From positions 599,218 to 663,217 of the forward strand of contig CBDAUI010000002.1 in assembly GCA_965200205.1 (NCBI GenBank): a DNA stretch of 64,000 bases, read 5' to 3'. The position numbers were made by a program, and so were the translations under genes. This DNA is from Candidatus Poribacteria bacterium (GTDB lineage: Bacteria > Poribacteria > WGA-4E > WGA-3G). A model generated the notes under the pieces. That model worked only from the letters and a program-made list of their open reading frames with translations. It was not told the origin of the DNA and did not search any database. This document shows, piece by piece, positions 3,454 through 37,268 of this stretch; the first letter of the stretch is position 1; each line of letters opens with the position of its first letter.

Positions 3454-5259
3454 ATGTCAACGAATCTTGAAAACATACGGAATTTCTGTATTTTAGGACA
3501 CATCGACCACGGGAAAAGCACACTCAGTGACCGGTTTATTGAGCATACGAACACGCTCGCCGAGCGCGAGATGCGGGCACAGGTGCTTGACCTGATGGAC
3601 CTGGAGCGTGAACGCGGTATCACTATTAAAGCGACCGCTGTTAAACTCCACTATCCTGCTACCGACGGAAACCGTTACGAGCTTAACTTGATTGATACGC
3701 CGGGACACGTCGATTTTACCTACGAGGTCTCACGTAGCCTTGCGGCGTGCGAAGGCGCGATTTTAATTGTTGATGCCGCCCAAGGCGTTGAAGCACAAAC
3801 TTTGGCAAACGCCTATCTTGCCATCGACAACGACCTCGAAATTATCCCGGTCGTCAATAAAATAGATTTACCGACGGCGCGCCCTGATGAAGCCAGACGA
3901 CAGATAGAAGAGGTTATCGGCATCCCCGCAGACGACGCACTCCTCGTGAGTGCGAAAATGGGGATCGGTATCCCTGCTATATTGGAAGCAGTCGTCAATC
4001 GTATCCCCGCACCTACCGGTGAAACAGAAGCACCGTTGAAAGCACTTGTGCTCGATTCTGTGTACGATAACTATCGCGGTGTCATCATGTACACCCGAAT
4101 TTTCGATGGCAGCGTCAAACCGGGTGATAAGATCCAGCTCATGAAGACGAGACGTGCTTATGAGGTTGAAGAGGTCGGTATCTTCACACCAGAGATGCAC
4201 CCAGCGACGGGTTTGGACACCGGTGCAGTCGGTTATCTCATCGCAGGCATCCGGGATATAGACAATGCGAAAATTGGCGATACAATCACGCACCATAAGA
4301 AACCGACGGCTGCGCCGCTGCCCGGCTATCGTGAAATGAAACCGCTTGTGTTCAGCGGTCTGTATCCGGCAGATACGAACCAATTTCCGGCGTTGCGAGA
4401 GGCACTCGAGAAACTGCGTCTCAACGATTCCTCCTTCAATTTTGAACCCGAAACTTCTGTCGCACTCGGCTTCGGTTTTCGGTGCGGTTTTCTCGGATTG
4501 CTCCACATGGAGATCATCCATGAACGTCTTGAACGTGAATTTGGACTTGAACTCGTCCGGACAGCACCGAGTGTGATGTACCGTGTCTATTTAAAAACCG
4601 GTGAGTACATATCTGTTGATAACCCTGCACACCTCCCAGAGCCGAATAATATTGAACATATTGAGGAGCCGTATGTCAATATTGACATTATCGTGCCGCG
4701 CGAGTACATCGGCAATGCGATGGAACTTTGTCAGAAGCGGCGGGGTGTATATAAACGGATGAACCAATTGGACGCAAGTCGTGTACAATTGCTCTATGAA
4801 CTTCCGCTCAGCGAAATGTTGACTGATTTTTACCCGAAACTGAAGTCCTTGACGCGTGGATACGGATCATTGGAATACGACATTGGCGCGTATAAACCTG
4901 AAAAGTTAGTGAAACTTGATGTGCTGCTTAACGGCAATCCGGTGGACGCGCTCTCTACGATTTTACCACGCGACACAGCGGAAACACGTGGAAAGGCGTT
5001 GGTGACGAAATTAAAAGAGGTAATACCGCGTCAGATGTTTGAGGTACCGGTTCAAGCGGCGATTGGTAACAAAATTGTCGCACGTGAAACTGTACGCGCC
5101 CTCCGAAAAAATGTTACAGCGAAATGCTACGGGGGTGATGTATCGCGAAAACGGAAATTGTTAGAGAAGCAGAAAGAGGGTAAAAAGCGGCTCAAGCAGA
5201 TCGGTAGGGTTGACGTACCGCAAGAAGCGTTCACAGCGATGCTCGCAACTGATGAATAA
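3454..5259 (+). CDS. lepA: Elongation factor 4 (LepA)
   Basis: [21 protein letters not shown]-domain and ~600 aa length; conserved lepA-lepB synteny. Confidence 0.95.
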
Positions 5260-6921: not shown

Positions 6922-8862
6922 ATGCATCAAGATCAACGCCACGTTATCATCGGAACCGCAGGACATGTTGACCACGGGAAAACAGCACTCGTTGGCGCGC
7001 TCACCGGTATGGAGACAGACCGACTCAAGGAAGAACGCGAGCGCGGCATGTCTATTGAGTTGGGTTTCGCTTATTTCGATTTACCGGATAACTCACGTGC
7101 CGGTATCGTTGATGTACCCGGACACGAAAAATTCATCCGCAGTATGCTCTCCGGTGCCTACGGTATGGATATTGTTCTCTTTGTTGTCGATGCGAAGGAA
7201 GGCGTACAGGAACAGACGCTCGAACATTTGGCAATTCTGGACCTGCTCGGAATCTCGAACGGTATCCTCGTCATGACAAAATCTGACTTGGCAACCGCTG
7301 ATGAATTGGCTGAAGCCGCTGAAATGACACAAGAGATGCTCGTCGGTACAAGCCTCGAAGATATACCGACTGTCAGTGTTTCTGCAATAACCGGTGCTGG
7401 CATTGAAACGTTGAAGCAGACAATTGTTGAGCAGGTGACACTCGCAACGAAATCGGAAGAGAATGACGGTATTCCGAGATTATATGTTGATCGCGTGTTT
7501 ACTGTTCAAGGCTTCGGCGTTGTTGTAACGGGGACACTTATCGGTGGCTCCATTAATCGAGAGCAGCGGATGGTACTGCTACCGCAAGGTGATGTCGTTC
7601 GGGTTCGCGGGATACAGGTACACAATGAACCTGCGTCGGTCGCTTACGCGGGTCAGAGGACAGCCTTAAACCTCTCAGGGATGTCTGCTCAGGACATCCA
7701 GCGCGGCGATGTCCTCTGTCCTATCGACTATTCACAAGTGACCGACAACATAGACGTGTCTTTACAAGTGTTGTCTTCGTTTCCGCGAATCATTGAGCAT
7801 TGGAGCCGTTTCCGCGCGTATCTCGGTACCCGTGAGATATTTTGTCGGTTAATCCTGCTGGTGGATGAGGCGATTCTCCCCGGAGATAAAGTACAGGTAC
7901 AACTCCGTTTAGAACAACCGATTTTGACGTTTAGGGGCGACCGAATTATCATACGCGATTTCTCGGCACAACATACAGTCGGTGGCGGCGAGGTGATCAA
8001 TCCGTTTGCGCCGAAGCATAAACGATTCACGCCAGAGACCATTGCGACTTTAGCAGCGTGGGAAGAAGCCGATGACGCGCAGATCGTCAATATCGTACTG
8101 GCGAATAGCGAAACTCTCTGCGTTCCGGAATCGTTTCTCTATTACTATCTGCCGCACTCGCAAACGGATGTGAAAGCCATTTTAGACATGCTCAAGGCAG
8201 AAGGGAAAATTGTCCGTTGGGTGGAATCTGGGAGGCAACCCATCGTCTCGGATGCAGAACGGACGGAAACAGTTAAGGCACAAATGGTAGACGCGCTTAG
8301 CGCGTTTCACGAGGCGCAGCCGCTCCTTGCAGGGCAAAATGCCTCACAACTTCGCCGAAAACTAAGCCTCGATGAACAGAGTTTTGAAAGACTCGCGAAC
8401 CGACTCATTAAGGAGCACCAACTCGTTAAAGATGGGAATTTACTCCGGTTAGCCTCTCACGAAATCCAGTTCTCTCAAGAAGAGGAGACTGCGAAAGAGA
8501 AATTAGAACAACTGTTTTTGGAAGCCGGTATGAATACGCCGACGCTAAATGAACTCAGCACACTGCTGCCAGAATATACACCGAAAGTTCTTGAGTCTAC
8601 ATTTTACGCGCTTTTAAACTTGGGACGGTTTCTTAAAATAGCAGAAAACTTTTTCATCCATAAAACAAGATTTGAGGAAATCAGCGACACATTAACGACA
8701 TATCTACGTGAAAATGGGACGATAACTGTTGCGGAGTTCCGAGAAACCGCCGGGACTTCGCGGAAGTATGCCGTACCTTTTTTAGAGTACTGCGATACGC
8801 AGAATCTTACGGTGCGCGATGGGAACATCCGAAGGTTACATCCACGGCATTTGGAAACATGA
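6922..8862 (+). CDS. selB: Selenocysteine-specific elongation factor SelB
   Basis: [13 protein letters not shown]...DVPGHEKF G-domain with a SelB-type long C-terminal winged-helix extension (646 aa); tRNA-Sec lies immediately downstream. Confidence 0.9.
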
Positions 8863-8883: not shown

Positions 8884-8977
8884 GGGGGAGGATAGGGTCC
8901 GGTGGCCCTACCGGTCTTCAAAACCGGATAGTCCATACACGTGGATTGGTGGGTTCGACTCCCACCCTCTCCCGCCA
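8884..8977 (+). tRNA. selC: tRNA-Sec (selenocysteine tRNA, anticodon UCA)
   Basis: 94 nt. 8-bp acceptor stem GGGGGAGG/CCTCTCCC (one G-U). Anticodon stem CCGGT/ACCGG with loop CTTCAAA, anticodon TCA at 8918-8920. Long variable arm. 5-bp T-stem GTGGG/CCCAC with TTCGACT loop. Discriminator G plus encoded CCA. The 8/5 acceptor/T geometry is the bacterial tRNA-Sec form. Confidence 0.85.
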
Positions 8978-10329: not shown

Positions 10330-11136
10330 ATGATCCGTGTAATTATTAATGGGGCATGTGGTCGTATGGGACGGCTCATCATTCAAGGTGTGACGCAACA
10401 GACGGACATGGAAATTGTTGGCGCGATTGAATACCCCGAACACCCACAAATCGGTAGTGATGCCGGTGTCGTCGCAGGTATTGGCGAGATTGGTATCGCT
10501 ATTACAGGCGCGCTTGAAGATGTACTTGAAGATGCAGATGTCATCATCGAGTTTTCAAAGCCCGAAGTAACCGTGCAGCACCTCAGACAGGTTGTTGATA
10601 CTGACAAAGCGATGATCATCGCAACAACTGGATTCAACGCTGACGAACTCACGACAGTTAAGCAACTTGCCTCTCAAATTCGCTGTGTGATGGCACCGAA
10701 CATGAGCCTCGGTGTTAACGTGATGATTCAGGCACTTGAGCTCATTGCTAAAGCCCTCGGGGATGACTACGATATTGAGGTTATAGAGGCACATCACAAT
10801 CACAAAGCAGATTCACCGAGTGGAACCGCACTCCGTCTGGCAGAGACCGTCGCTGCGGCATTAGAACGCGACTTAGATGAGGTCGGGGTTTACGGGCGCC
10901 ACGGTATTGTCGGTGCGAGACCGAAGAAACAGATCGGTATCCATGCCGTGCGCGGTGGCGATATTGCAGGCGATCATACGGTACTGTTTGCAACCGAAGG
11001 TGAACAATTAAGTGTTGTCCACCGTGCCCACAGTCCTGAAGCTTTTGCCAAGGGGGCGATCCGTGCAGCGAGATGGGTTATTGATGCCCCTAAAGGACTG
11101 CACGATGTCAGCGAAGTCCTTTTTCAGAAGTCGTAG
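10330..11136 (+). CDS. dapB: 4-hydroxy-tetrahydrodipicolinate reductase
   Basis: N-terminal GACGRMG Rossmann motif and EAHHNHKADSPSGTA catalytic motif. Confidence 0.9.
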   Translation: MIRVIINGACGRMGRLIIQGVTQQTDMEIVGAIEYPEHPQIGSDAGVVAGIGEIGIAITGALEDVLEDADVIIEFSKPEVTVQHLRQVVDTDKAMIIATTGFNADELTTVKQLASQIRCVMAPNMSLGVNVMIQALELIAKALGDDYDIEVIEAHHNHKADSPSGTALRLAETVAAALERDLDEVGVYGRHGIVGARPKKQIGIHAVRGGDIAGDHTVLFATEGEQLSVVHRAHSPEAFAKGAIRAARWVIDAPKGLHDVSEVLFQKS

Positions 11137-11166
11137 GAACTAACTATAGGTTCAAAGGAATCTCTG

Positions 11167-11976
11167 ATGATCCGTGTTGTTATTATTGGTATTTGTGGTC
11201 GTATGGGACAGTGTCTCACGCGCTGCATTACTCAACAAACCGATATGCGGCTCGTTGGTGCTATCCAATATCCATCGCATCCACGCATAGGCAGTGATGC
11301 CGGTGTCGTCGCAGGTATTGGTGACATCGGTGTAGCTATCGCAGGTGAACTTGGGGATGTGCTTGAAAACGCGGATGTCGTTATTGAGTTTTCAAAACCT
11401 AAAGCGACACTCGGATACCTCCGACAGATTGTCAATACAGATAAAGCTATCGTTATTGGCACAACTGGATTTACCGGCGATGAACTCGCAACTGTCAAAG
11501 AACTCGCCGCACAGACTCGCTGCGTGATGGCACCGAATATGAGTCTCGGTGTCAATGTGATGATTCAGGCACTCGATTTAATTGCCAAAGCCCTTGGAGA
11601 TGATTATAATATTGAAGTCATAGAAGCGCATCATAATCATAAAGCAGATTCACCAAGTGGGACAGCATTCCGATTAACAGAGACACTCACCACAGCACTC
11701 GAACGAGATTTAGACGAGGTAGGCATTTACGGTAGACACGGTATTGTCGGTGCGAGACCGAAGAAACAGATCGGCATTCATGCCGTGCGCGGTGGTGATA
11801 TTGCCGGTGATCATACGGTACTGTTTGCGGCAGAAGGTGAACAATTAAGTGTCGTCCACCGCGCGCACAGTCCCGAAGCATTCGCGAAAGGTGCGATTCG
11901 TGCCGCGAGATGGGTCGTTGATGCCCCTAAAGGATTACACGATGTCAGCGAAGTCCTTTTCCCAGAGCAGCCCTAA
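11167..11976 (+). CDS. dapB: 4-hydroxy-tetrahydrodipicolinate reductase, tandem paralog
   Basis: Same motifs; ~80% identical to the upstream copy by eye. Confidence 0.9.
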   Translation: MIRVVIIGICGRMGQCLTRCITQQTDMRLVGAIQYPSHPRIGSDAGVVAGIGDIGVAIAGELGDVLENADVVIEFSKPKATLGYLRQIVNTDKAIVIGTTGFTGDELATVKELAAQTRCVMAPNMSLGVNVMIQALDLIAKALGDDYNIEVIEAHHNHKADSPSGTAFRLTETLTTALERDLDEVGIYGRHGIVGARPKKQIGIHAVRGGDIAGDHTVLFAAEGEQLSVVHRAHSPEAFAKGAIRAARWVVDAPKGLHDVSEVLFPEQP

Positions 11977-25274: not shown

Positions 25275-27281
25275 ATGGAAAACAGGCGCACCGCTATCCC
25301 CGCGCTCAGATCACCTGACAACACAGATGTAACAACTTGGGAACTTCCCGATGGTGCGATTGCACGATTAGGTAGGGGAATCATAGCGGATTTGGCACTT
25401 TCGCCAAGTGGCGAATCCCTTGTAGCTGCAACGACTATGGGGTGCTGGCTCTATGAACTCCCTACCATGCAACCCATCGCATTGTGGGAAACCGAACGGG
25501 GCCTGGTTTCTACTGTCGCCTTTTCTCCCAATGGACAATGGATTGCCACCAGCAACTGGGACGGTATCATTAGGGTATGGGAAGCAGAGACGCAACAGTG
25601 CACTGCCAAAATACAAGGATGGTCCCTTCATATACAAGGATGGCACCTTCGTACCTCCCAACTTGCCTTCTCACCGGATAGCCAATACCTTGCTGCATCC
25701 GGCAAAGGTTACGGTGACGTTTATGTATGGAATACAACGACCGGCATGCACGTCGCAAGTTTCAGAGTCGCAGGGACTCCGAAAAAAGGCGAACGGCTAC
25801 CCGCCCGTTTTCCGCTCTGCTTTTCACCAGACGGGCAGTATCTCGCTTATGTTTCTGGTCGGATCACTCTCGCTGTCCGCCATATAGAGACGAAGGAACA
25901 CATCGCGCTCCTGAACCATTTCTCTCGAAAACACATACACGGTCTTGCTTTTTCACCGTGCGGACGGTTTCTCGCTGTTGGTGGTCAAAATACGTCTACC
26001 CATCGTCAGAACACTGAGCTGCAGGTATGGAATATTGATAAAGAGACCCTTGAAATGAAGGATTCGGGCTATGGTGGCGATAGGTTGATACCTGCCTACT
26101 CGTCTGATGGAACCTTTCGGGTTGCCGACGTGTATAAGGACAAAGTGGTACTGTGGGACGCATTCCGGCGAGAGAAACTTGATACTTTTGAATACGGAAG
26201 AAGTGCCAAAAAGACTTTTAGGTTTTCATCTGATGGGCAGCAATTCGCAATCGCCACGGAACGTGAGGTGCGCGTATGGCGCGCGGATGCACCGCTCACA
26301 TTAGTGTCTGATCTGAGGCATACGCGCATGGTTCGGACACTGTTCTTTATGCAAAATAGCAAGACATTGGTGATCGGATACAACGGCGAAAGCGGAATCG
26401 TGTTCTGGGACATTGTTCAGAAGCGAGCGCGGCAAACATTTAGTACTTATGCTGGACAGTGCGCTTTATCCCCGTGTGAAGAGATGTTGGCTACCACCGT
26501 TGGAGAAAACAACGAAACGATTGAAGTCTTGAATGTTACTTCGGGTACCGCGATTGCAACACTCACCAAACATCAAAGTTATGTAACTGCGCTTGCGTTC
26601 TCGCCTAACGGTGAACACCTTGTTAGCGGGGATGCCGAGGGAAACTTGTCCGTGTGGACTGTTGAGTCTTGGCAAGAATCGCGCGAACTCATCGGACATA
26701 CCAATGGGATTACAGCAGTGGCATTTCATCCGAATGGTTCGCAAGTTGTCACGGCATCCCGCGATCACACAGCGCGCGTCTGGGATATTGAGAGTGGAGA
26801 ACAGTTCGGATCGCCTTCTGTGGAGTTCACATTAGCGGATGCTTCCCTTTATAAAGGGGATTCACGGGAAATCCAGCGCCGTTTGAAACGAAGAGCAAAG
26901 GTGCTGGGGATCCGTACTGTCACGTTTTCACCTTGCGGTAATCTCATCGCGGGTAGATTATGGGGTGAGATCCGTTTGTGGGATGCAGCAACTTTGGAAC
27001 CGTGTATGGGGATAATTCTCCCTGAGAGTTGCTCCCGTGTCGGTGTCGTGGTATTTTCGCCATGTGGTCAATATCTCGCCTCCGGTTCTTGGTGGAACGA
27101 AACGGACAAAGTCTCCATCCGCGTATGGGAGGTTGCCACTGGGGAAAACGTTCATACCATCTGGAGTCATCCGACAGATATTCAGGATCTCGCTTTTTCA
27201 CCAGACGGTTCGCTCTTAGCGAGTGGGAGTTTTGACGGTACCGTTCTACTCTGGGATATGAAACCGTTTATAGATGTCTAA
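25275..27281 (+). CDS. WD40 repeat protein (likely two beta-propellers)
   Basis: ~14 WD40 repeats, e.g. GHTNGITAVAFHPNGSQVVTASRDHTARVWD and SVAFSPNGQWIATSNWDGIIRVWE. Confidence 0.85.
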   Translation: MENRRTAIPALRSPDNTDVTTWELPDGAIARLGRGIIADLALSPSGESLVAATTMGCWLYELPTMQPIALWETERGLVSTVAFSPNGQWIATSNWDGIIRVWEAETQQCTAKIQGWSLHIQGWHLRTSQLAFSPDSQYLAASGKGYGDVYVWNTTTGMHVASFRVAGTPKKGERLPARFPLCFSPDGQYLAYVSGRITLAVRHIETKEHIALLNHFSRKHIHGLAFSPCGRFLAVGGQNTSTHRQNTELQVWNIDKETLEMKDSGYGGDRLIPAYSSDGTFRVADVYKDKVVLWDAFRREKLDTFEYGRSAKKTFRFSSDGQQFAIATEREVRVWRADAPLTLVSDLRHTRMVRTLFFMQNSKTLVIGYNGESGIVFWDIVQKRARQTFSTYAGQCALSPCEEMLATTVGENNETIEVLNVTSGTAIATLTKHQSYVTALAFSPNGEHLVSGDAEGNLSVWTVESWQESRELIGHTNGITAVAFHPNGSQVVTASRDHTARVWDIESGEQFGSPSVEFTLADASLYKGDSREIQRRLKRRAKVLGIRTVTFSPCGNLIAGRLWGEIRLWDAATLEPCMGIILPESCSRVGVVVFSPCGQYLASGSWWNETDKVSIRVWEVATGENVHTIWSHPTDIQDLAFSPDGSLLASGSFDGTVLLWDMKPFIDV

Positions 27282-27482
27282 AACTGCCTACCCCGATTTA
27301 TTGGTCGTAGATACCTATGAAACTCTATGCAGAATTTTCTTGCAGTTTAAGGTAAAATGTGTTAAAATACGATGTGATAAGTTTCACACGGCGGTGCAAA
27401 GTTGTGCGAAACAATATTGACACAACGCGTAAAACACTACAGCGAGGTTGCGCTTTTGGAATACGCAACAGGAGGAACTGAA

Positions 27483-28325
27483 ATGGCAAATGGAATTTCA
27501 CGATTTTTTAAGTCGATATGGTATACGTTAACAGGCCGCGCCCATGAGGCAGCGGATCGAATGATGGAAAACCCCGAAGCCGTTAGAGGGGCTTACGAAG
27601 ACATCATCAGCGATAAGAAAGGGAATATTCAGCGCTATAAACAGGCGATCGGCCAGCTTATCGCACTCGTGGAACGCAAGAAATCCACGGTAAAGAACCT
27701 TACCGACGAAGTCGAAAAGTTGGAAGAATTGAAATCTGGGGCAATCGCTAAGGCACAGCAGACCGCTGCGGACCTGCAAGCACAAGGAATGGCACCCGAA
27801 GAAGTCAAACAGCATGCTGAATATGTACGCTGCGTTACGGCTTACCAAGAATTCAATACCAATCTGGAAGACAAAACCAGACAAATTTCCGAGTTGGAAA
27901 ATGATATTCAAGAGGCGCAAGCCGGTATTGACAACCATAAAATCCAGATTACCAGTCTACATCGCGATTTAGAACAGATTAAGGATGAACAGTCTGAAGC
28001 GGTTGCTGATCTGATTACTGCGCGAGAGCAAGAGGAGATCGCCGATATGCTTTCGGGGATTAGTATGGATGGGACCTCTGCTGAACTGACCCGGATGCGC
28101 GAAATCCGCGAAAAGGCGAAAGGACGTTCAGTCGTCGCACAGGAATTGGCTGGTACCGATTCACGCTCCGAAGAGGAGGAATTCCTCGCCGCTGCGCGGT
28201 CGTCTTCAACCTCTGACGAATTTGACGCTCTGATTTTCGGGGCACAGCAGACAGATACACAGACCGGAACAGAAACAGAGTCCGCTAAGAAGGCAGAGGA
28301 TTCCGATTCTGAACTGCCGCTCTAA
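27483..28325 (+). CDS. PspA/IM30/Vipp1-family (bacterial ESCRT-III-like) coiled-coil protein
   Basis: Collinear with PspA/Vipp1: amphipathic N-terminus, MENPEAV (cf. AEDPEKM), ALVERKK (cf. ALERKK), long coiled coil, SAELTRMREIREKA (cf. SAMSAFERMEEKV), acidic tail. AGGAGG RBS before the ATG. Confidence 0.7.
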   Translation: MANGISRFFKSIWYTLTGRAHEAADRMMENPEAVRGAYEDIISDKKGNIQRYKQAIGQLIALVERKKSTVKNLTDEVEKLEELKSGAIAKAQQTAADLQAQGMAPEEVKQHAEYVRCVTAYQEFNTNLEDKTRQISELENDIQEAQAGIDNHKIQITSLHRDLEQIKDEQSEAVADLITAREQEEIADMLSGISMDGTSAELTRMREIREKAKGRSVVAQELAGTDSRSEEEEFLAAARSSSTSDEFDALIFGAQQTDTQTGTETESAKKAEDSDSELPL

Positions 28326-28437
28326 CGTGCCACTTACAAGTGTCTCGCAGCGACGCGAGTTTGCTATCTAAAACTGAAGGGGGCGATAACTCATACCTGT
28401 TAAAAGCCCGACCTACGCCTTCCGCTCAGAAGCCGGA

Positions 28438-30261
28438 ATGCTCATTAACTCTGGGACATCTCGGAGTCTCGTCCTGTCTGGAAATATCCACGATCTCTTT
28501 TTTTTTAAAGAAGAAGATAGTACGGATTATATTCCACTCGTCCCCTTTTTAACACACAGTTGGGATATACCTGGATTCATCCTGATCGTTTATGAACTCA
28601 ACGGGCCCATACGTTTCGCGCAGGAGTCGGACCGCGAAAAGGTGAAACATGCCTTCAACCGATGGCGAGGGACAGCCGAATCTGACACTGATATAGATGC
28701 CCCACCCAGCACCTCGCGCCGCCGCGAGTCTATCGTTGGATCACTTGACACCGCTATAGAACCCTCTAATGTCTCTTTCTCACAGTACATGACGGATGCG
28801 ATCGGCAGCCCGACGCTTGCGCTCGAACTCCTCCGCCAGTTTTGTCTACTTTCGCGTAGCACAAACAGAGATGGCGAAAAATTTCTCTCTGAAAAACTGA
28901 TTATCCTCATAGAAGCAGCCGATATGCTGCTGCCAGAAGGCGAAATACGCGGTTTGTCACTTCAGGATAGGCATCGGGTCAGTATCGTTCAAGACTGGAT
29001 TTCCGATTCCAATTTCATGAACGGTAACGATACTGTCATCTTCGTTACAGAATCTGCCAGTCTTCTAAACTCTCGGATTATTAGGTTGCCACAGGTTGTC
29101 AACGTTGAAATCCCGGCACCGGGGATGTCGGAGCGTCAGCACTTCATTTCGTGGTTTAATAACACGCCGCAATTGATCGCGAAACCGTTAAACCTATGGG
29201 GTACACAAGCGCAACTCGCAATGCTGACAGCCGGATTATCCATACAGGCACTCCGCCAAATGCTGCTCTACGCCTGTTATTCCGGTGAGAAACTTCAACC
29301 CGAAGATGTTATTGAGAAGGTTTCTGAATTCATCCAGACCCAGTTGGGTGAAGATGTTGTCGAGTTTAAAAAGCCTGCACACAGCCTAAAAGACATCGTC
29401 GGTAACCGAAAGTTAGTGGATTTCCTAAAAACGCAGTTGATTCCGCGTATCACCTCAACGGGTCCCGACGCGATTCCGGGAATGAGCGTCTGCGGTCCCA
29501 TCGGCAGCGGAAAAACCTTTATTTTTGAGGGACTCGCCGGTCAACTCGATATCCCGGTCCTCGTCCTCAAGAACATCCGGAGTATGTGGTTCGGACAGAC
29601 AGATGTCATCTTTGAACGACTCCGACGGTTACTGATGGCACTGGTGAAGGTGTTAATCTTTGTTGACGAAGCGGATACGCAATTTGGAGGTGTCGGGAGG
29701 GAGGCACACAGCACAGAACGGCGTTTGACGGGAAAAATACAGGCGATGATGTCGGACCCGCAGCTGCGTGGCAATATCACATGGCTTCTGATGACTGCCC
29801 GAATCTATAACCTCTCACCTGATTTACGACGCGAAGGCAGAGTCGGGGATATGGTGGTTCCGGTATTGGATCCGCGCGGTGAAGACCGTGAGGATTTCCT
29901 ACGCTGGACGATTGCGAAGGTCTCCTCCAGTCCGTTTTCTGAGGAAGATATTCAACGACTCCTGAAAGTAACCGAGGACTATTCTGCCGCGAGTTTCGCC
30001 TCGCTACGTTCCGACCTTGAAGCCGCCAGTCTTATCAAAGCGAGCTCAGAAACAACCGGTGAGCTTACAATCGATGAAATCATCGCTGTCGCCGAAGATC
30101 GGATCCTACCGAATATCGGACCCATAAGACAGTATCAAACCTTGCAAGCACTCCTCAATTGCACACGAAAATCTTTACTCCCCGTGGACTATTCCCCAGA
30201 AATCCGTGAATCGTGGGCGAAACAGATTGCCCAACTCGAAGCATTGGGTGTTAGGGGATAG
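28438..30261 (+). CDS. Classical-clade AAA ATPase with ~330-aa uncharacterized N-terminal region
   Basis: Walker A GPIGSGKTF; Walker B LIFVDEAD; sensor-1/second region of homology LLMTARIYNLSPDLRREGRVGD (cf. ATNRPD.LDPALLRPGRFD). Confidence 0.75.
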   Translation: MLINSGTSRSLVLSGNIHDLFFFKEEDSTDYIPLVPFLTHSWDIPGFILIVYELNGPIRFAQESDREKVKHAFNRWRGTAESDTDIDAPPSTSRRRESIVGSLDTAIEPSNVSFSQYMTDAIGSPTLALELLRQFCLLSRSTNRDGEKFLSEKLIILIEAADMLLPEGEIRGLSLQDRHRVSIVQDWISDSNFMNGNDTVIFVTESASLLNSRIIRLPQVVNVEIPAPGMSERQHFISWFNNTPQLIAKPLNLWGTQAQLAMLTAGLSIQALRQMLLYACYSGEKLQPEDVIEKVSEFIQTQLGEDVVEFKKPAHSLKDIVGNRKLVDFLKTQLIPRITSTGPDAIPGMSVCGPIGSGKTFIFEGLAGQLDIPVLVLKNIRSMWFGQTDVIFERLRRLLMALVKVLIFVDEADTQFGGVGREAHSTERRLTGKIQAMMSDPQLRGNITWLLMTARIYNLSPDLRREGRVGDMVVPVLDPRGEDREDFLRWTIAKVSSSPFSEEDIQRLLKVTEDYSAASFASLRSDLEAASLIKASSETTGELTIDEIIAVAEDRILPNIGPIRQYQTLQALLNCTRKSLLPVDYSPEIRESWAKQIAQLEALGVRG

Positions 30262-30367
30262 TAAGAAAAATGCTGCATTAGTACGCGACGCAATTTTGTG
30301 CTATAATGGTAATGTGTAACGAACACAGTGTGGTGTTTTATAACAACATTTCAGAAGGAGAAGTACC

Positions 30368-30661
30368 ATGTCATATTCTGATGCTACCTCTGAAACCATC
30401 GCCGCCCGCGGCGAAGAAATCTATCAGCAGTACCGCGAAGAACTCGAAGCTCAACACAAAGGTCAGTTTTTTGTAGTTGACATTGAAACGGAAAACTATG
30501 AAATCGCCGATGAGGATTTGGAAGCGACAAAACGTCTGCTTGCTAAGAATCCCAAGGCTATGACTTACGGGGTGCGAATCGGATACCCGGCCACCCACGG
30601 TATCGGCTTCAGCTTCGTAGAATGGAATGTGGAATACTATAATGATAACAGGGAAAATTAG
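30368..30661 (+). CDS. Small conserved hypothetical protein (copy A of a duplicated pair)
   Basis: 97 aa; ~65% identical to the 31022-31288 product (shared SETIAARGEEIYQ...FVVDIETENYEIADEDLEAT); preceded by a TGnTATAAT extended -10 at 30298-30306. Confidence 0.6.
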   Translation: MSYSDATSETIAARGEEIYQQYREELEAQHKGQFFVVDIETENYEIADEDLEATKRLLAKNPKAMTYGVRIGYPATHGIGFSFVEWNVEYYNDNREN

Positions 30662-31010
30662 AGACGAACGTGTAGCTATCATTGAAGTGGAAGTGATCGG
30701 CTTAAATCAACGCGCGAAAATTGAGGCAACTCTTGATACCGGATTTACGGGCTATCTGACACTACCAGAGTTTTTAGTTGACTACTTAAGGCTTCCATAG
30801 ATTGGTACTCGGCACACAATTATTGCTCATGGAAGAGCAGTAATCCTTGACCTGTATCTTGCCAAAGTGATTTGGCACGGCAAAGAACGCGATATAGAAG
30901 TTCTGCAAACAGACAAGCAACCGTTAATCGGTATGTCGTTGCTTCGCGGAAGTCGTGTAACACTTGATGTTGTGCCAGATGGCGACGTAACGATTGCTCC
31001 GCTGCGATAG
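30642..31010 (+). pseudogene. Retropepsin-like (clan AA) aspartic protease gene with an in-frame TAG at 30798-30800
   Basis: MITGKIRDERVAIIEVEVIGLNQRAKIEATLDTGFTGYLTLP carries the catalytic D-T-G. The same frame continues after the TAG with ...VILDLYLAKVIWHGKERDIEVLQTDKQPLIGMSLLRGSRVTLDV, a retropepsin C-terminal-like segment. The ATG overlaps the 3' end of the upstream small gene. Confidence 0.55.
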
Positions 31011-31021
31011 GGAGAATCACT

Positions 31022-31288
31022 ATGCTATATTCTGATGAGACCTCCGAAGCCATCGCTGCCCGCGGTGAAGAAATCTATCAGTCCTTGAAGGATGAGCTTG
31101 AATCTCAATACAAAGGCAAAATTTTTGTAGTTGACATTGAAACAGGGAACTATGAAATTGATGATGAGGATTTAGAAGCTACAGCCTGTCTCTTTGCGAA
31201 GAATCCCGACGCTGTTACTTATGGTTTACGCATTGGCTTCGTACCTATCTATAAACTCGGTTTTAGATCTTACGGTTGGAAACCTTAA
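31022..31288 (+). CDS. Small conserved hypothetical protein (copy B)
   Basis: 88 aa paralog of the 30368-30661 product. Confidence 0.6.
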   Translation: MLYSDETSEAIAARGEEIYQSLKDELESQYKGKIFVVDIETGNYEIDDEDLEATACLFAKNPDAVTYGLRIGFVPIYKLGFRSYGWKP

Positions 31289-31373
31289 CCGTGGTTTTCC
31301 ATTATCAATAAAAGCGAAAGGTGTTTCAGTAAAATCTCAAAACAGATCCATATTCAAACAACTTTCAATCACA

Positions 31374-32920
31374 ATGTGGCATATCGCAACTTTTGCTTTT
31401 CTTCTATTCTGCATAACAACCGTAGTTCCCGCCCAAACTGTTGAGCAAATTGCTGAAAAAGCATTAGCGGCTACGGTCTACTTGGAGATGAAGGACAGCA
31501 CCGGCAAAACCATCGGATTTGGTAGTGGTTTCTTCGTGACGGAAAATCTGATCGCTACGAACTATCACGTCATAGAAGGTGCAGCAACTGGTACTGCACG
31601 ATTAGTGCAAAACACTCGAAATACGCCCAAGCTTAACCCTGAGTTGAATAAAGCCCACATTAATTTCATTAATAAATACGAGACATACACTATCGAAGGG
31701 TCTACTGCTACTGACGAAACAAACGATCTTGTACTCTTAGAGGTATCGACACGTATCAAGGATCCAGATTTATTGAAAATTTATAGGCAACTATTCCCTA
31801 TCCAACCTCTGTCTATTGGTAACAGCGCCGAAGTCAAAACTGGGACACTGGTATACGTTGTGGGAAATCCAAAAGGCTTAGAAGGTACATTCTCAAGTGG
31901 CATTATCAGCAGTCGTCGCAGGAGGCTCACTGAGGAACGCCTACAGATGACAGCTCCAGTTTCCCCGGGGAGCAGCGGTGGGCCTGTCCTAAATAATAAA
32001 GGTGAAGTAATTGGAATCGCCTTTATGACTATTGAAGGCGGACAGAATCTTAATTTTGCGATTCCCTCAAACTACCTTAAAACACTACTCCTTCAATCTG
32101 GAACAGTAAAACCCCTGTCAGAGAACGAACAATCCATCTCCGCGGAGACGTATTTCCTACGAGGCGAGGCGATGAGGGAGATGGAACTATATGAGGAAGC
32201 AATTGCAGCTTATGACCAAGCAATACGTCTAAAACCAGATTATGTTGAAGCATATAACGAACGGGGCGTTGCCAAAATTATGCTAGGACAATATTTCGCC
32301 GCTATTGCTGATTTTGACCAGGCAATACAACTCAAACCCGATTATGCAGATGCATATACACATCGTGGAACTGTGAAGACAATTCTAGACCAAAATTCTG
32401 CCGCGATTGCCGATTATGATAGGGCAATTCAAATAACACCTGATGATGCCTTTGTGTACCATTTTCGTGGTATGGCAAAAGAAACTTTGAAACAATATTT
32501 TGCTGCTATCTCCGATTTTGACAAGGCCATAAAACTAAAACCTGACTTTGCCGAAGCATATCACAAGCGGGGGAGATAAAGATCGTTCTCGGTCAACCTC
32601 GTGCTGCCATCTCTGATTTCAACAAAGCCATAGAATTAAAACCTGATGATGCTGAAATATACTATAGTCGGGGATCCGTGAAAGGATTTCTGAAGCAATA
32701 CTTTGGTGCCATCTCTGACTTTGACAAGGCTATAGAATTAAAACCTGATTTTGCCAAAGTATACGTCAGTAGAGGCATTTCAAAGCACAAACTGGGACAA
32801 ACTTGGGAGGCAAAACGGGATATCCAAATAGGGTTGAAAATTGCTGAACGGACAGGTGATACAGATACCAAGGATCTTGCCGAGCTTACACTTCGTTTTC
32901 TTGAAACCAGTGGAAGATGA
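31374..32920 (+). CDS. Secreted trypsin-like (S1) serine protease with C-terminal TPR repeats; frameshifted at a G5 homopolymer near 32569-32573
   Basis: Signal peptide MWHIATFAFLLFCITTVVPAQT. S1 domain (GFGSGFFVTENLIATNYHV; TAPVSPGSSGGPVLN with the catalytic Ser). 34-aa TPR repeats continue seamlessly across the frame change (…AEAYHKRG | EIKIVLGQPRAAISDFNKAIELKPDD…). Confidence 0.7.
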
Positions 32921-33195
32921 AAACTAAATGTTATGTTTGCTATGCAACGCGAACTTGACTGTATGCCGTCAGACGAACGCTACGCAAGGTTTGAACAGCG
33001 TCAAAAAGAGATGGAAGTACTATCGCTTTTGAGGATAATCAGGGTAATACGGACGAACATATCGATGAACTTCATGGGATTTGGGGTGATATTTATCAGA
33101 CCGTTGGTCTCCAACAAGGACTAAGTACCGAGGCTCTAAGATTTGGTGCAACACTCATATCACCTACTCCACTCAGTAAGCCCCTTGGCGAGGAA

Positions 33196-34029
33196 ATGGC
33201 TGTTACAAATTTCACCGAACAAGTTGGGGCAAACACGTCCGAAGCTCTTAAGGTTTCAAAGTGGCTGCTAAAAGTTACAAAAGCAGTCGATAAGTTTCTG
33301 GGAGATATGCGGGGTTCCAGAGAAGCCGTAACCGAAATTGCCCATGCGCGGTTGCTGGCGGTAGCAATTATCTTATCAGATTTTTGTTTGAATGATAAGA
33401 CAAAGCTTCTTAATGAATGGGAGAAAACAACGTTCAGGATTTTCGGACTCCTTGATAAGGATGCTCGCACAGGGGTTGGAAATTATGTGAGATTGGCTCG
33501 CGATATCTGGAAGAATCCTGAGTTAAGTGCCGATGACATTTTAGATAAGATACAGGAAATTGGAACGTTGTATCACATTGACGATTTACTCAATCAACCG
33601 GAAGGCACGAATTGGTACGAAGGTTGGGAGACAGAACTTCGATATTTGTTGTTCCGTTACGAGGAGCATCTGGCTAAACAGCTGGGACAAAAGTTTGATA
33701 ACGAGCAGTGGCGGCGTATGTGGGAAGATTCACCTTCACGCTCTGTTGAACACATTTTTCCACAGTCGAAAGGTAGCCAGGAGCCCTTAAGAGATAGTCA
33801 AGAAGGTATTTACGTTCATAGACTTGGAAACCTTTTGCTCTTACCACCAGGCCTCAATTCAAAGCTGGGGAATAAGGATCCGGAAGATAAGGCACCTTGC
33901 TATAGGCAGACCGGACTTTTCAGTGCTGCCGATGTCGCGCGAACGATTGATGAGTATGGTTGGGGAGCAGATCAGATTAAAGAACGAGAGCAGCGGATGA
34001 TAACATGGATTCGCGAGAAATGGGGATAG
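33196..34029 (+). CDS. DUF1524 (GmrSD C-terminal, His-Me finger/HNH-like nuclease) domain protein
   Basis: SVEHIFPQSKG...VHRLGNLLLLPPGLNSKLGNK matches the DUF1524 signature; no DUF262 N-terminal domain present. Confidence 0.6.
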   Translation: MAVTNFTEQVGANTSEALKVSKWLLKVTKAVDKFLGDMRGSREAVTEIAHARLLAVAIILSDFCLNDKTKLLNEWEKTTFRIFGLLDKDARTGVGNYVRLARDIWKNPELSADDILDKIQEIGTLYHIDDLLNQPEGTNWYEGWETELRYLLFRYEEHLAKQLGQKFDNEQWRRMWEDSPSRSVEHIFPQSKGSQEPLRDSQEGIYVHRLGNLLLLPPGLNSKLGNKDPEDKAPCYRQTGLFSAADVARTIDEYGWGADQIKEREQRMITWIREKWG

Positions 34030-34260
34030 GGAGGGATTACATCTCGTTCATGAACCTCCTATAAATTTTCGCGGATATGACGGGTCAGTTCTGTGCAAGA
34101 TAGAGCAACCGATTTCCCAATGCCGAAGCACGCCCTCCGGGGTCTAATCTCAACTGCCCAGATGCCGAGTTCTCGCGTAAAGTAAAATCTATGAATACAA
34201 GATTAATTAGCACAAGTCGTAAACATCGGAGGTGCTGAACAATAGCACTTTAAGGGGAGT

Positions 34261-36084
34261 TTGTTAATGGCACATCACCACAACCCAGCATCCGTGGATG
34301 CCTACTTCCGACAAGGCAATTCGCTCTACGAGATGGAGCTCTACGAGGAAGCTATTGATGCCTATACCAGCGCAATCCGGTCTAATCCGGATACTATTAC
34401 CGTCTTCTACAACCGAGGCCTCGCCAAGGCGAAACTCGGACGATATGCCGACGCTATAAAAGACTTTGACATCGCCATACGCCGGAAACCCGATTTTGCT
34501 GAAGCCTACTACAGTCGCGGAAACGCTAACGCCAACCTTAAACAACACCGCCAAGCCGTCACTGAATACGATAAGGCAATACGATACAAACCCAATTACG
34601 TCGAAGCTTACATGGACCGGGGTGCTGCGAAACTTTTCCTCGGTCAGCATGCTGAGGCCCTAAAAGACTATGACTTCGTTATACAACACAGCCCCAATGA
34701 AGTCATAGCATACTATAATCGCGGATTGATCAAAGCTGAACTCGGACAATACGCAGCCGCTATCGCGGATTTTGATGAAGCCATACAACGCAATCCGAAT
34801 GACACTGAGGTTTACATCGACCGGGGAACTGCGAAGTTTAACTGCCATCAATATGCCCTAGCTGTCCAAGACTATGACAAAGCGATACAACGCAATCCGG
34901 ATAGAGCTGATACGTACTACAAGCGCGGAGTTGCAAAGAGTAGACTCGGTCAACACGCAGCGGCTCTTGAAGACTATGACAAAGCGATACAACTCAAGCC
35001 CGACTATGCTGAAGCCTATGATAGCCGAGGCGTGACAAAAGCCGCCCTTGGCGAGTATACTGAAGCTATCAAAGATTATGACGTGGCGATACGATGCCAA
35101 CCCCACTCTGCCGAAACCTATAACAATCGAGGGGTCGCGAAACAGGAACTCGGTCAATACGCAGCGGCTCTTGAAGACTATGACAAAGCGATACAACTCA
35201 AGCCTGATTATATCAAAGCTTATAACAATCGGGGGGTCGCGAAACGGGAACTCGGTGAATATGCCGCTGCTGTCGCTGATTATGACATCGCCATCCGATG
35301 TGACCCCGATTATGCGGAAGCCTATTGTAATCGTGCGGCTGCGAAGACGAAACTCGGTCACCACGATGCCGCTATTGCAGATTTAGACACAGCAATACAT
35401 CTCAATCCGAATAATGCTGCCCCGTATTACAATCGCGGGGCTGTGAAGGTCACCCAGGGCGAACCCGTAGCCGCTATCGCGGATTTTGATGAAGCCATAC
35501 AACGCAATCCTGACCTTATCGAGGCCTATTACAATCGCGGATTTGCTAAGGGGAATCTTTGTCAATATACCGAGGCAATACAAGACTTTGACATCGTGAT
35601 ACAGCGGAAACCTGAGGATGCACAAACCTATCTCATGCGCGGGAGTCTAAAGTCGGCCCTCGGTCAATATGCCGAGGCTATACAGAACTTTGACACTGCC
35701 CTACAATACAACCCTGATGATGTCAAAATTTACGTCGCTCGCGGTACTGCAAGGGCTGCCTGTGGTCAATATACTGAAGCCGTAGAAGACTTTGACATCG
35801 CACTTCAGTATAACCTCGAAATTGACTTTGTTTACCTCTACCGCGGACATGCCAAAGCAAAACTCGGCCAATACCCGGACGCTATACAGGACTTTGACAC
35901 GGCGGCACGTCTCAATCCGAATGACCCCCAACTCCCTCTCCTAAAGGCAGGAGCGAAATTAGAATTAGAGAGAGCTCAGGAGGCGAAACAGGATCTTCGC
36001 ACGGCTTTGAGACTCGCGAAAAAGAAAGGCGATGCGGACCTGATAACCCACATTGAGAAAACATTGTGTAGCCTCAAAGAGTAA
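34261..36084 (+). CDS. TPR repeat protein (~16 regular 34-aa repeats)
   Basis: Near-periodic AEAYYNRG.AK..LG.Y..AI.DYD.AI...P repeats; 102-bp periodicity is also visible at DNA level (e.g. near-identical segments at 34945-35004 and 35147-35206). Confidence 0.85.
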   Translation: MLMAHHHNPASVDAYFRQGNSLYEMELYEEAIDAYTSAIRSNPDTITVFYNRGLAKAKLGRYADAIKDFDIAIRRKPDFAEAYYSRGNANANLKQHRQAVTEYDKAIRYKPNYVEAYMDRGAAKLFLGQHAEALKDYDFVIQHSPNEVIAYYNRGLIKAELGQYAAAIADFDEAIQRNPNDTEVYIDRGTAKFNCHQYALAVQDYDKAIQRNPDRADTYYKRGVAKSRLGQHAAALEDYDKAIQLKPDYAEAYDSRGVTKAALGEYTEAIKDYDVAIRCQPHSAETYNNRGVAKQELGQYAAALEDYDKAIQLKPDYIKAYNNRGVAKRELGEYAAAVADYDIAIRCDPDYAEAYCNRAAAKTKLGHHDAAIADLDTAIHLNPNNAAPYYNRGAVKVTQGEPVAAIADFDEAIQRNPDLIEAYYNRGFAKGNLCQYTEAIQDFDIVIQRKPEDAQTYLMRGSLKSALGQYAEAIQNFDTALQYNPDDVKIYVARGTARAACGQYTEAVEDFDIALQYNLEIDFVYLYRGHAKAKLGQYPDAIQDFDTAARLNPNDPQLPLLKAGAKLELERAQEAKQDLRTALRLAKKKGDADLITHIEKTLCSLKE

Positions 36085-36119
36085 AAATCGGTAAGCGTGG
36101 AACCTATGAGAACCTCGCG

Positions 36120-37268
36120 TCAACTGAGGTTAATAATCTCTCCAGTTGCTGCAGAGCGATACCCCGCGCAGATGATTTCGACGGAATGCACAGCAAATTC
36201 GGCGTTCATCTCGCTCTCTATGCCGTTCTCAATACAATCCACAAACGCACTGAACTCTCGTGGCCCATCGTCTCCGCTGCCGACATCTATCCACTGCTGT
36301 TTCGGGCGCATACCGCTCTCCGCTTGTGTACTACTCCACATCCCCATCGGATCGAGCGGATGCGGGGTCGGCGGTTCAAACGCCGGTTCAGCAGCAAACA
36401 CTTCCAGACGGTTCGCTGAAGCATCAAACGTCAAGCTCCCTTCGGTGCCGATGAGGTGTACCTTCCGAACACCGCCTTGTGCGTGACTCTGCCAACCGTA
36501 GCGTCCGCTGGTAATTGTCGCTGTCGTACCATCTTCTAACGTCAGCACCAATGCACCGAAATCTTCGAGATCACAGTCGAGATGCTCTTTGAAGAAATAG
36601 TTCGCTGTTCCACCAAACACGCGCTGCACCCGTTTCTGTGTCAGCCAATTCACCATAGACACCGCATAGACCCCGACATCGAACATCTCAGGCTTCGCTT
36701 CAACGAAACTATAGCGCTCCAGTGTAGGTTTTTGGATTCTTTTCTCTCCAACGGGTGCGGTGCCGGGATGTCCCTTGGAGAAAAGCACATCGCAATGGAT
36801 CGCTTGAAGTTCACCGATACGTCCACTGGTCAATGCGCGCTGAACCGTGCGTGCCCACGTACTATGGATATTACTGAACATCTGGGTTCGCACGCCGCTT
36901 TTTGAGACCGCTTCAACAATCCTGTTCGCATCGTCAGGGTTGAGTGCCATCGGTTTATCGAGATAGACGTGTTTTCCCGCTTCCGCACATTTTGCACCGA
37001 CACGTCCACGACGTTCCACCTCCGTGCAGAGGCTGACGATATGAACATCCTCACGTGCCAAAGCGTCGTCGAGATCACGGATGAAAGGTAGATTTAACGA
37101 TTCTGCGAGCGAACGTGCCAGTGCCACCCGTTCTGGTGGTGCATCGAGTTCATCGGCAAACGCGATCAATCGGCAGCGTTCGTCTTGTTCAAAAAGCGAG
37201 GCGTAATTCTCCTGATGTGTGCGGTATCCGCCGAGCAGAAGCACACCGTATTTTCCGTTTTGCCGCAT
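36120..37268 (-). CDS. Gfo/Idh/MocA family NAD(P)-dependent oxidoreductase
   Basis: N-terminal Rossmann fold (YGVLLLGGYRTHQENY...) and family-typical C-terminal domain. Confidence 0.85.
   Translation of the reverse strand: MRQNGKYGVLLLGGYRTHQENYASLFEQDERCRLIAFADELDAPPERVALARSLAESLNLPFIRDLDDALAREDVHIVSLCTEVERRGRVGAKCAEAGKHVYLDKPMALNPDDANRIVEAVSKSGVRTQMFSNIHSTWARTVQRALTSGRIGELQAIHCDVLFSKGHPGTAPVGEKRIQKPTLERYSFVEAKPEMFDVGVYAVSMVNWLTQKRVQRVFGGTANYFFKEHLDCDLEDFGALVLTLEDGTTATITSGRYGWQSHAQGGVRKVHLIGTEGSLTFDASANRLEVFAAEPAFEPPTPHPLDPMGMWSSTQAESGMRPKQQWIDVGSGDDGPREFSAFVDCIENGIESEMNAEFAVHSVEIICAGYRSAATGEIINLS

Follow-up and report, generated by a model that had tools for sequence, protein, structure and literature searches.

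Poribacteria are sponge-symbiont bacteria. The locus studied here lies in a 64,000-nucleotide stretch of a poribacterial genome, hereafter the window, and comprises three genes in the same orientation: a small gene (A1), a gene encoding a retropepsin-like aspartic protease with a stop codon in its frame, and a second small gene (A2) whose product is 64% identical to that of A1 (E 2e-40) (Table 1). The original prediction had proposed the paralogy of the two small proteins (97 and 88 aa), the position of the protease ATG within the last 20 nt of A1, and the TAG at codon 53, all of which are borne out by the sequence. The proposed translational coupling of the protease to A1 is likewise supported. 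The gene had been said to be missing from the track of open reading frames (ORFs), where its halves indeed appear only as ORFs of 57 and 47 aa. A1 ends in TAG, as does the full-length protease frame (31008-31010); some gene callers choose an alternative in-frame ATG at 30627 (P0008, P0086). A2 starts 11 nt past the protease stop and has its own GGGAG-type ribosome site. The candidate promoter was missed by the consensus scanner because its -35 hexamer is weak, and the terminator-like hairpin is a likely end of an A1-protease-A2 transcript, although such a pattern does not by itself demonstrate function.

Table 1. Features of the locus, in window coordinates.
Feature	Position	Strand	Basis and remarks
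Candidate promoter, extended -10 TGcTATAAT	30299..30307	+	By eye; 61 nt 5' of A1; putative function
Shine-Dalgarno-like AAGGAG	30355..30360	+	By eye; ATG of A1 7 nt downstream
Small partner gene A1, 97 aa, pI 4.5, first cistron, intact	30368..30661	+	ORF
Retropepsin-like protease gene (clan AA, TIGR03698/COG5550), 122 codons, second cistron, nonsense-inactivated	30642..31010	+	Translation, profile match
In-frame TAG, codon 53, from CAG (Gln)	30798..30800	+	DNA alignment; C>T at 30798
Partner paralogue A2, 88 aa, pI 4.35, intact	31022..31288	+	ORF
Terminator-like hairpin, 10 pairs and T-rich tail, end of A2	31270..31304	+	Consensus scan (pattern)

At a syntenic locus (L001), PspA and AAA are followed by a small protein of 97 aa, an intact protease of 121 aa, a small protein of 88 aa, and trypsin/TPR. 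The downstream A2-type copy is found at only some loci (L001, L003, L004, L017, L055, L084, L085, L089); two contigs end inside it (L086 and L087), and it is missing in L005-L007. Decay also shows elsewhere in the window, with a frameshift in the neighbouring trypsin/TPR gene and a truncated GmrSD gene.

The joined translation of the protease gene, searched with X at codon 53, matches the TIGR03698 profile with 61.7 bits (E 7.2e-17), above the curated cutoff of 57.35 bits, and its resemblance to retropepsins is therefore not due to chance. Each half also separately matches a protease HMM that we built ourselves (E 6e-19 and 6e-22). Across two sets of 39 and 62 homologues, the active-site residues D32, T33, and G34 never vary and F35 varies rarely if at all, and all four are present in the window; G97, M98, L100, and L101 are nearly invariant, and the window has the corresponding LIGMSLL helix motif. 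The search for homologues retrieved 87 proteins, the top 20 of which are intact, 121-127 aa long, and 83-92% identical to the window protease. We modelled the structure of one intact orthologue, 92% identical (P0004), in place of the interrupted window protein. Its AF2 model (pLDDT 94.4) is a single-lobe retropepsin fold whose best Foldseek matches in the PDB are the proteases of HIV-1, foamy virus, and EIAV, the retroviral-protease domain of Ddi1, Rickettsia APRc, and RloA, with probabilities of 0.97-1.00 over the listed matches; the protease profile found no sequence relatives in the PDB. The sequence has no signal peptide or membrane segment, and the P0004 model enters a beta-strand at residue 2. 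These results confirm the D-T-G site and the retropepsin-like C-terminal segment of the original prediction, and intact orthologous pairs, whose existence it had left to be established, were found. The window gene is a member of TIGR03698/COG5550 by descent and a null allele, lacking an intact ORF because of the TAG at codon 53.

The COG5550/AF_0612 family consists of prokaryotic, single-domain, non-viral clan AA peptidases, and of proteins of this type 'little is known' was the verdict in 2009 (Llorens et al. 2009, PMC2642776). Like other members of TIGR03698, the window protease measures about 120 aa, has one retropepsin lobe and the D-T-G-F motif, and lacks a signal peptide; it departs from the norm of the family by its nonsense codon. 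Cyanobacterial relatives are named clan AA aspartic protease (TIGR03698) in RefSeq, and the NCBIfam annotation of TIGR03698 does not mention an obligatory upstream partner gene. The retropepsin fold is shared with enzymes of the COG3577/TIGR02281 type (the membrane-embedded Rickettsia APRc, 5c9b; Pseudomonas RloA/B/C; Legionella Lpg0085), structures of which are among the fold matches. The PDB entries of RloA carry the label periplasmic, and one account describes the Pseudomonas Rlo enzymes as secreted (PMC12239564). The present protease differs from the APRc and Rlo types in having no signal peptide or membrane segment and in having a small partner. A further parallel by description is Saci_1895, an archaeal stand-alone retropepsin-domain protein of about 100 aa from type III-D CRISPR-Cas loci (Vestergaard et al. 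2014, PMC3973734). It too is small and sits in the neighbourhood of a conflict system, but no partner gene is reported for it, and CRISPR genes are absent near the window locus.

The partner proteins, acidic and about 90 aa long, belong to a large family (2,933 clusters at 50% identity, E<=1e-3) with no sequence relatives in Pfam, NCBIfam, or the PDB, the last giving only chance-level hits. None of the 113 clusters of A1 homologues has a Pfam domain. An assignment to Pfam DUF5678 was discarded because the window proteins and 55 + 9 diverse members gave no Pfam match at E<=1. The AF2 model of A1 (pLDDT 70.8) has the arrangement helix-strand-strand-helix-strand followed by a disordered tail, and it has no fold match. 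No DNA-binding domain of the RHH, HTH, AbrB, or Phd/YefM type is recognisable. The disordered tail is conserved and carries the motif R-I/V-G-aromatic-P/R-A, which could be a binding or cleavage segment. An aromatic-Pro motif (Tyr/Phe-Pro) in the tail was set aside as a retropepsin cleavage site, since members from Chloroflexota have H-R instead.

The pairing of the two genes is strict. We read 160 related loci, out of more than 504 hits in genomes and over 480 in metagenomes, and in all of them, as in the window, a homologue of the partner lies directly 5' of the protease and overlaps it. The upstream partner is on the same strand in 80 of 80 genome loci and for 81 of 81 metagenome protease hits. 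The two genes mostly overlap by 4 or 8 nt, and by 20 nt in the closest poribacterial loci. The pair is found in Poribacteria, Latescibacterota, Binatia, Acidobacteriota, Entotheonella, Chloroflexota, Planctomycetota, Rubrobacteraceae, and Armatimonadales. It also occurs, with a 4-nt overlap, on cyanobacterial conjugative plasmids beside ParD/RelE-ParE genes, including pCC7120alpha of Nostoc PCC 7120 (partner WP_010999914.1, protease WP_010999913.1). Thirteen cyanobacterial plasmids carry it, 11 of them conjugative or mobilizable, and two copies are present in each of OX639973.1, OZ242029.1, and the assembly JAAXHI01. The flanks are heterogeneous: 126 flanking ORFs from 63 loci contain 180 Pfam families, none of which occurs in more than five ORFs, and we therefore rejected a conserved third gene. 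A phage origin was rejected as well, as there is no relative among 2.9 million viral contigs and no PHROGs match for the protease, A1, or A2. The absence of a match for the same three proteins among the PADLOC defence models led us to reject a known defence system. Literature searches on TIGR03698 and on retropepsins or aspartyl proteases with toxin-antitoxin (TA) systems returned no description of the pair. It is a widespread, undescribed two-gene unit that is genetically toxin-antitoxin-like.

The two genes decay asymmetrically. Besides the window, 11 of the 160 loci have a disrupted protease, and none has a disrupted partner. If disruptions followed gene length, the chance of an 11:0 split would be 0.58^11, or about 0.003. 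This asymmetry matches what is described for chromosomal TA systems, in which the toxin erodes first (PMC13617665) and the partner is left intact. As in ParDE and RelBE, the pair forms an operon of two genes, the first of them small and overlapping the start of the effector gene; the genes are adjacent, co-oriented, and always paired. Further traits shared with type II systems are the mobility of the module (several copies per genome, patchy distribution across lineages, and carriage on conjugative plasmids beside other TA genes) and the disordered C-terminal tail of the partner. Two features set it apart. Classical type II antitoxins have a DNA-binding domain, of which none is recognisable in the partner, and the putative effector is an aspartic protease; no TA toxin of this class is known to us, and we found none in the literature searched. 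The lack of a recognisable domain and the negative results with PADLOC, PHROGs, and viral contigs speak against a TA reading.

By this TA reading, the partner, made first, would bind the protease, made second, and hold it in check, acting as an antitoxin or inhibitor of a harmful effector, a mechanism to which we give not quite an even chance. The module would spread and decay as type II TA systems do, losing the protease first and keeping the partner, and the strain in the window would have reached the stage at which the toxin is dead and the antitoxins are retained. A rather less probable reading, though one to be taken seriously, is that the pair does not work like a TA system at all. The protease would then serve regulation or housekeeping in the cytoplasm, perhaps together with the neighbouring PspA/AAA and trypsin/TPR proteins, with the partner as its dedicated substrate, pro-peptide-like precursor, chaperone, or activator, and the window copy would merely be decaying. 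This would fit the site following PspA-AAA, which is common to 10 poribacterial loci (one of them on an ENA metagenome contig) with proteases 53-93% identical, and where a trypsin/TPR gene often comes next after the module. Such a site looks like the result of long vertical retention and not of a purely selfish element. An acidic partner with a conserved tail motif and no DNA-binding fold, and the lack of matches to known defence and TA models, point the same way. Against it, PspA/AAA neighbours are kept only in these orthologous poribacterial loci; the other 70 genome loci have unrelated genes next to the module, and the conserved unit is therefore the pair alone. Moreover, knockouts recur in the protease and not in the partner, and the pair is found in several copies per genome and on conjugative plasmids beside ParDE-type modules.

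We compared the TAG with independent public assemblies. The DNA alignment with three intact alleles at codon 53 (L001, L002, L003) gives CAG in 3 of 3, and close homologues have Q or R in this column. The lesion is therefore one C>T substitution. Five other assemblies (L084-L087 and L089) carry the same TAG, and the exact 52-aa product is called in the Logan assemblies SRR24412581, -82, -83, and -97 and in ENA ERZ23491927. These five contigs, from five samples, represent two further haplotypes, separated from the window by 9 and 78 differences, respectively, in ungapped alignments. Because the stop codon recurs in five other assemblies and in three haplotypes, counting the window, there is good support for a real null allele, and for the recent pseudogene that the original prediction had listed first among its options, intact orthologues at the same syntenic site having CAG. 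In one assembly (L089) the allele has gone further: the normal stop of the protease is lost (TAG>TGG at 31009), and T41 of the partner, an invariant residue, is changed to M.

Readthrough was another of the options, and we consider it improbable. It would mean that the TAG is decoded or leaky, by a suppressor tRNA, pyrrolysine, or programmed low-level readthrough, perhaps so as to keep the full-length protease deliberately scarce. The frame past the TAG is fully open, and all four changes that separate the three TAG haplotypes within the protease ORF are synonymous, in a gene where about 35% of possible transitions are synonymous; this pattern is also what residual function by readthrough would produce. 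Nine other loci have one or a few in-frame stops in frames that are otherwise open, and three independent stops fall in the adjacent columns 53-55. However, intact alleles share two of the four synonymous variants, which may therefore be pre-existing polymorphisms spread by recombination. Haplotypes that diverge by about 4% elsewhere are almost the same from about 29450 to 31320, which suggests that this segment is young and recently shared. The relatives have stops of all three kinds (TAA, TAG, and TGA), spread over positions 9 to 82 and too varied for a common recoding signal, and the ancestral codon is an ordinary CAG. Recoding is unlikely also because TAG terminates 16 of the 40 long ORFs of the window (40%), including A1 and the protease gene itself. 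Neither a shortage of TAG terminators nor recurrent in-frame TAG within conserved genes, the expected signs of recoding, was found, and on the evidence of the window we rejected code reassignment and pyrrolysine. The only unusual tRNA in the window is a tRNA-Sec, which reads TGA. The absence of a natural stop and the mutated partner residue in L089 add to the case against readthrough.

Two further readings are very unlikely. A sequencing or assembly error in a truly intact gene, which the original prediction had also allowed for, would need only one base relative to the intact orthologues and has a possible parallel in the nearby homopolymer-associated frameshift of the trypsin/TPR gene, which could itself be an error, but it is contradicted by five contigs, each from a different sample and assembled independently, that carry the identical TAG on haplotypes differing from the window at other sites. 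The suggestion of a prokaryotic counterpart to eukaryotic Ddi1 split over two genes, with a ubiquitin-like or beta-grasp partner and a retropepsin, draws on a related protease fold, the Ddi1 retroviral-protease domains being matched among other retropepsins, and fails on the partner, which is a separate gene of unrelated sequence, without relatives in Pfam, NCBIfam, or the PDB, and whose model is neither ubiquitin-like nor a beta-grasp.

The C>T transition from CAG (Gln53) to TAG would end translation after 52 residues. The fragment would keep the D-T-G loop and lose the rest of the fold, and for that reason no active dimer is expected from it. We think it likely that the window holds a natural null allele of a cytoplasmic retropepsin-like protease, in what reads best as an eroding, TA-like inhibitor/protease module. 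We advance more tentatively, as a proposal that could well prove wrong, that the pair represents a new and widespread TA-like or conflict family, with an aspartic protease as effector and an antidote of unseen fold with a disordered neutralising tail, of which the window allele would be a snapshot of toxin-first erosion.

On its own, the interrupted gene is nothing more unusual than a null allele in a curated family of proteases, and it illustrates how independent public assemblies make it possible, without reads, to check an in-frame stop in a metagenome-assembled genome. The wider point concerns the stand-alone prokaryotic retropepsins, which in every examined locus are coupled to an uncharacterised partner; of the two genes only that of the protease decays. 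Should the pair be an inhibitor/protease addiction or conflict module, aspartic proteases would join the toxin effectors of bacteria, and small 'hypothetical' proteins in about 3,000 clusters would acquire a testable function, for which the pair on plasmid alpha of Nostoc PCC 7120 is a tractable test case.

The sequence agrees with the original prediction of a 123-codon protease frame (stop included) that carries a TAG at codon 53, starts on an ATG overlapping the end of the upstream small gene by 20 nt, and is flanked by two duplicated small genes, A1 and A2, which are 64% identical. Because of the in-frame TAG, the ORF list splits the protease in two and shows it solely as pieces of 57 and 47 aa.

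Features of the partner-protease module in the window
Feature	Position	Strand	Description	Basis
Small gene A1	30368-30661	+	97 aa, stop TAG	ORF listing
Protease frame	30642-31010	+	122 codons, ATG at 30642, stop TAG at 31008-31010	translation
In-frame TAG, codon 53 of protease	30798-30800	+		translation
Small gene A2	31022-31288	+	88 aa, begins 11 nt past the protease stop	

The joined translation matched TIGR03698, the NCBIfam family of clan AA aspartic proteases, with 61.7 bits (E 7e-17), above the curated cutoff of 57.35 bits; a Pfam search with it gave no match. Each half alone matched a protease HMM made from the homologues (E 6e-19 and 6e-22), and since the two halves and the joined frame all score strongly, the protease signal is far past chance. 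A database search returned 87 homologue clusters, and the 20 nearest homologues are intact, 121-127 aa long and 83-92% identical (the sole one with a named source is from Candidatus Poribacteria). The D32-T33-G34 triad is invariant in homologues, while F35 and the LIGMSLL segment hardly vary. The AlphaFold model of P0004, a 92%-identical orthologue (pLDDT 94.4), has its best PDB matches among HIV-1, foamy-virus and EIAV proteases, the retroviral-protease domains of Ddi1, Rickettsia APRc and Pseudomonas RloA. Sequence and model show neither signal peptide nor membrane segment, unlike the membrane-embedded APRc. The Rlo retropepsins differ likewise, being secreted or periplasmic (PMC12239564 and the labels of the RloA PDB entries). 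The protease matches COG5550, a group of single-domain clan AA peptidases from prokaryotes, about which "little is known" according to a 2009 survey (PMC2642776). The gene is a defective member of TIGR03698/COG5550, in which every family feature tested was found except the intact frame. A possible parallel is the small protein with a retropepsin domain that accompanies type III-D CRISPR loci in archaea (PMC3973734).

A scan of one genome per species identified more than 504 relatives, of which we examined the best 80, and a metagenome scan added another 80 loci (160 in total). A small-gene homologue lies immediately upstream of the protease, on the same strand, in all 160; the two genes share 4 or 8 nt in most loci, and 20 nt in those Poribacteria loci that are closest. 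Among the best 80 of the more than 504 genome relatives, carriers of the pair include Poribacteria, Latescibacterota, Binatia, Acidobacteriota, Entotheonella, Gammaproteobacteria, Chloroflexota/Dehalococcoidia, Planctomycetota, Rubrobacteraceae and Armatimonadales. Several genomes have two copies. The pair, overlapping by 4 nt, is also carried by 13 cyanobacterial plasmids, of which 11 are conjugative or mobilizable. On the conjugative plasmid pCC7120alpha of Nostoc PCC 7120 (locus L171, 390977-391626), the partner WP_010999914.1 and the protease WP_010999913.1, annotated as "hypothetical protein" and "clan AA aspartic protease", adjoin ParD and RelE/ParE (remnant) genes. Elsewhere the flanking genes are a mixed set (180 Pfam families across 126 flanking ORFs, each in at most five, including some HepT/MNT and HsdM), so that only the pair itself forms a conserved unit. 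The PspA-AAA genes (PspA/IM30-like and a 607-aa AAA ATPase; window 27402-30261) precede the module only in 10 orthologous Poribacteria loci (L001, L004-L009, L013, L017, L028). A small-gene copy downstream of the protease, as in the window, recurs in L001, L003, L004, L017 and L055; the small gene is present twice upstream in L065, and tandem-fused as double or triple repeats in L030 (3453-4004), L037 (2115-2666) and the protein P0201. A literature search of incomplete coverage found no description of this pairing.

The partner had no relative in Pfam, NCBIfam, PADLOC, PHROG or PDB sequences. The suggested analogy with Ddi1, a ubiquitin-like partner combined with a retropepsin, found no support, and the pair differs from Ddi1. 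An exhaustive profile search with the partner returned 2,933 clusters at 50% identity (E<=1e-3). Occasional fusions, known from single metagenomic proteins and thus weak evidence, link the partner domain to a ThsB-type TIR, to the protease domain in reverse order (partner behind the clan AA domain), or to a WapI-like immunity domain (partner in front); with the tandem repeats, these proteins are P0239, P0261, P0297 and P0201.

Aligned at the DNA level, L001 and two further intact alleles read CAG at the position of the window TAG, which makes the lesion one C>T substitution at 30798; codon 53 encodes Gln or Arg in close homologues that are intact. L001 shares its gene order with the window (PspA/IM30, 606-aa AAA ATPase, 97-aa small gene, intact 121-aa protease, 88-aa small gene, trypsin/TPR). 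The exact 52-aa truncated product was called in Logan assemblies SRR24412581, -82, -83 and -97 and in ENA assembly ERZ23491927, and all five independently assembled contigs carry the TAG. Nine sites (29593-31208) separate the Logan haplotype from the window, four of them within the protease ORF (30713, 30836, 30852, 30920) and all four synonymous; two of these four also occur in intact alleles. The ENA haplotype, with 78 differing sites over 3.4 kb, has three of the four, has lost the normal protease stop (TAG>TGG at 31009), and has Met at the otherwise invariant T41 of the small protein. Divergence between haplotypes is ~4% upstream of ~29440 and at most 0.8% from there to ~31320. An identical TAG in five independent assemblies, on haplotypes unlike the window's, rules out the sequencing or assembly error originally considered; its recurrence and the single CAG-to-TAG change relative to syntenic intact alleles support the recent pseudogene proposed alongside it. 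The protease is very probably null; most simply read, the null allele is young and lies on a segment that recombines and was shared recently.

Functional readthrough, the remaining option, would fit two features of the relatives and is nevertheless highly improbable. Among the 160 loci, nine further proteases have in-frame stops and two more are frameshifted or partial, so that nonsense lesions far outnumber frameshifts; and three stops that arose independently sit in neighbouring columns, the window TAG, a TGA in the same column of L049 (Dehalococcoidia, ~4157-4159) and a TAA in the next column of L132 (metagenome, ~1663-1665), with a roughly estimated chance of ~0.1. Against it, TAG is an ordinary terminator here, ending 16 of 40 long window ORFs, A1 and the protease included (TAA 22, TGA 2), and the relatives' stops comprise all three codons at scattered profile positions (9, 21, 23, 26/27, 44, 54, 55, 79, 82), which is a mutational spectrum and not a recoding signal. 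Among the tRNAs of the window, only tRNA-Sec (8884-8977) is unusual; it lies directly after the gene for SelB, the selenocysteine elongation factor (6922-8862).

The module's islet in the window strain shows further decay. The trypsin/TPR gene just downstream (31329-32920) has a frameshift at a G5 run near 32568-32572: its orthologues in L001 and the related strain L084 (530 and 565 aa) follow one frame to ~32575 and another from ~32580, and their GTG start is GTA in the window (A at 31331). The frameshift could mean that the gene is truly a pseudogene, or be an error in the homopolymer. The ORF at 33196-34029 (277 aa) retains the C-terminal nuclease domain of GmrSD, its N-terminal half gone, and is probably 5'-truncated, because the GmrSD of L084 has 560 aa and both domains. 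Past the protease stop (31011-36132) lies an indel hot spot of Poribacteria, where L005-L007 skip from ~31054 to 36132, and L002 and L004 to ~34220-34290. The region is flanked by large WD40 (668 aa, 25275-27281) and TPR (607 aa, 34261-36084) repeat proteins, of a kind typical of sponge symbionts. Separately, two tandem dapB (dihydrodipicolinate reductase) genes at 10330-11976 lie in the same frame, 82% identical in protein, with a TAG and 30 nt between them.

The interrupted gene is by itself ordinary. Disruptions hit the protease in 11 of the 160 loci (12 of 161 if the window is counted) and spare the partner in all 160, a split with a probability of ~0.58^11, or 0.003, by our calculation if lesions were proportional to gene length. 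The erosion reported for chromosomal toxin-antitoxin systems follows the pattern "toxin inactivation precedes antitoxin loss" (PMC13617665). The two genes are inseparable, co-oriented and overlapping; as a unit they are independent of their neighbours, occur in several copies, are distributed patchily across lineages and are carried on plasmids. In its genetics the pair resembles type II toxin-antitoxin systems without being counted as one of them, the toxicity of the protease being hypothetical; it differs in that the partner has no DNA-binding domain. By a mechanism of this kind, free protease would harm the cell and the partner would neutralise it, perhaps via a disordered tail; the window strain would then have a dead effector with both partner genes still intact. 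This mechanism is plausible, if tentative. The main rival, in which a regulatory protease has the partner as its dedicated substrate, chaperone or pro-peptide, is somewhat less likely; it gains from the same lack of a DNA-binding domain and from the long vertical retention of the window-type copy in Poribacteria beside PspA-AAA and trypsin/TPR. The interest of the locus lies in an invariant, uncharacterised two-gene module, not in the interrupted gene, and the pCC7120alpha copy is a convenient experimental system in which the pair may be tested directly.
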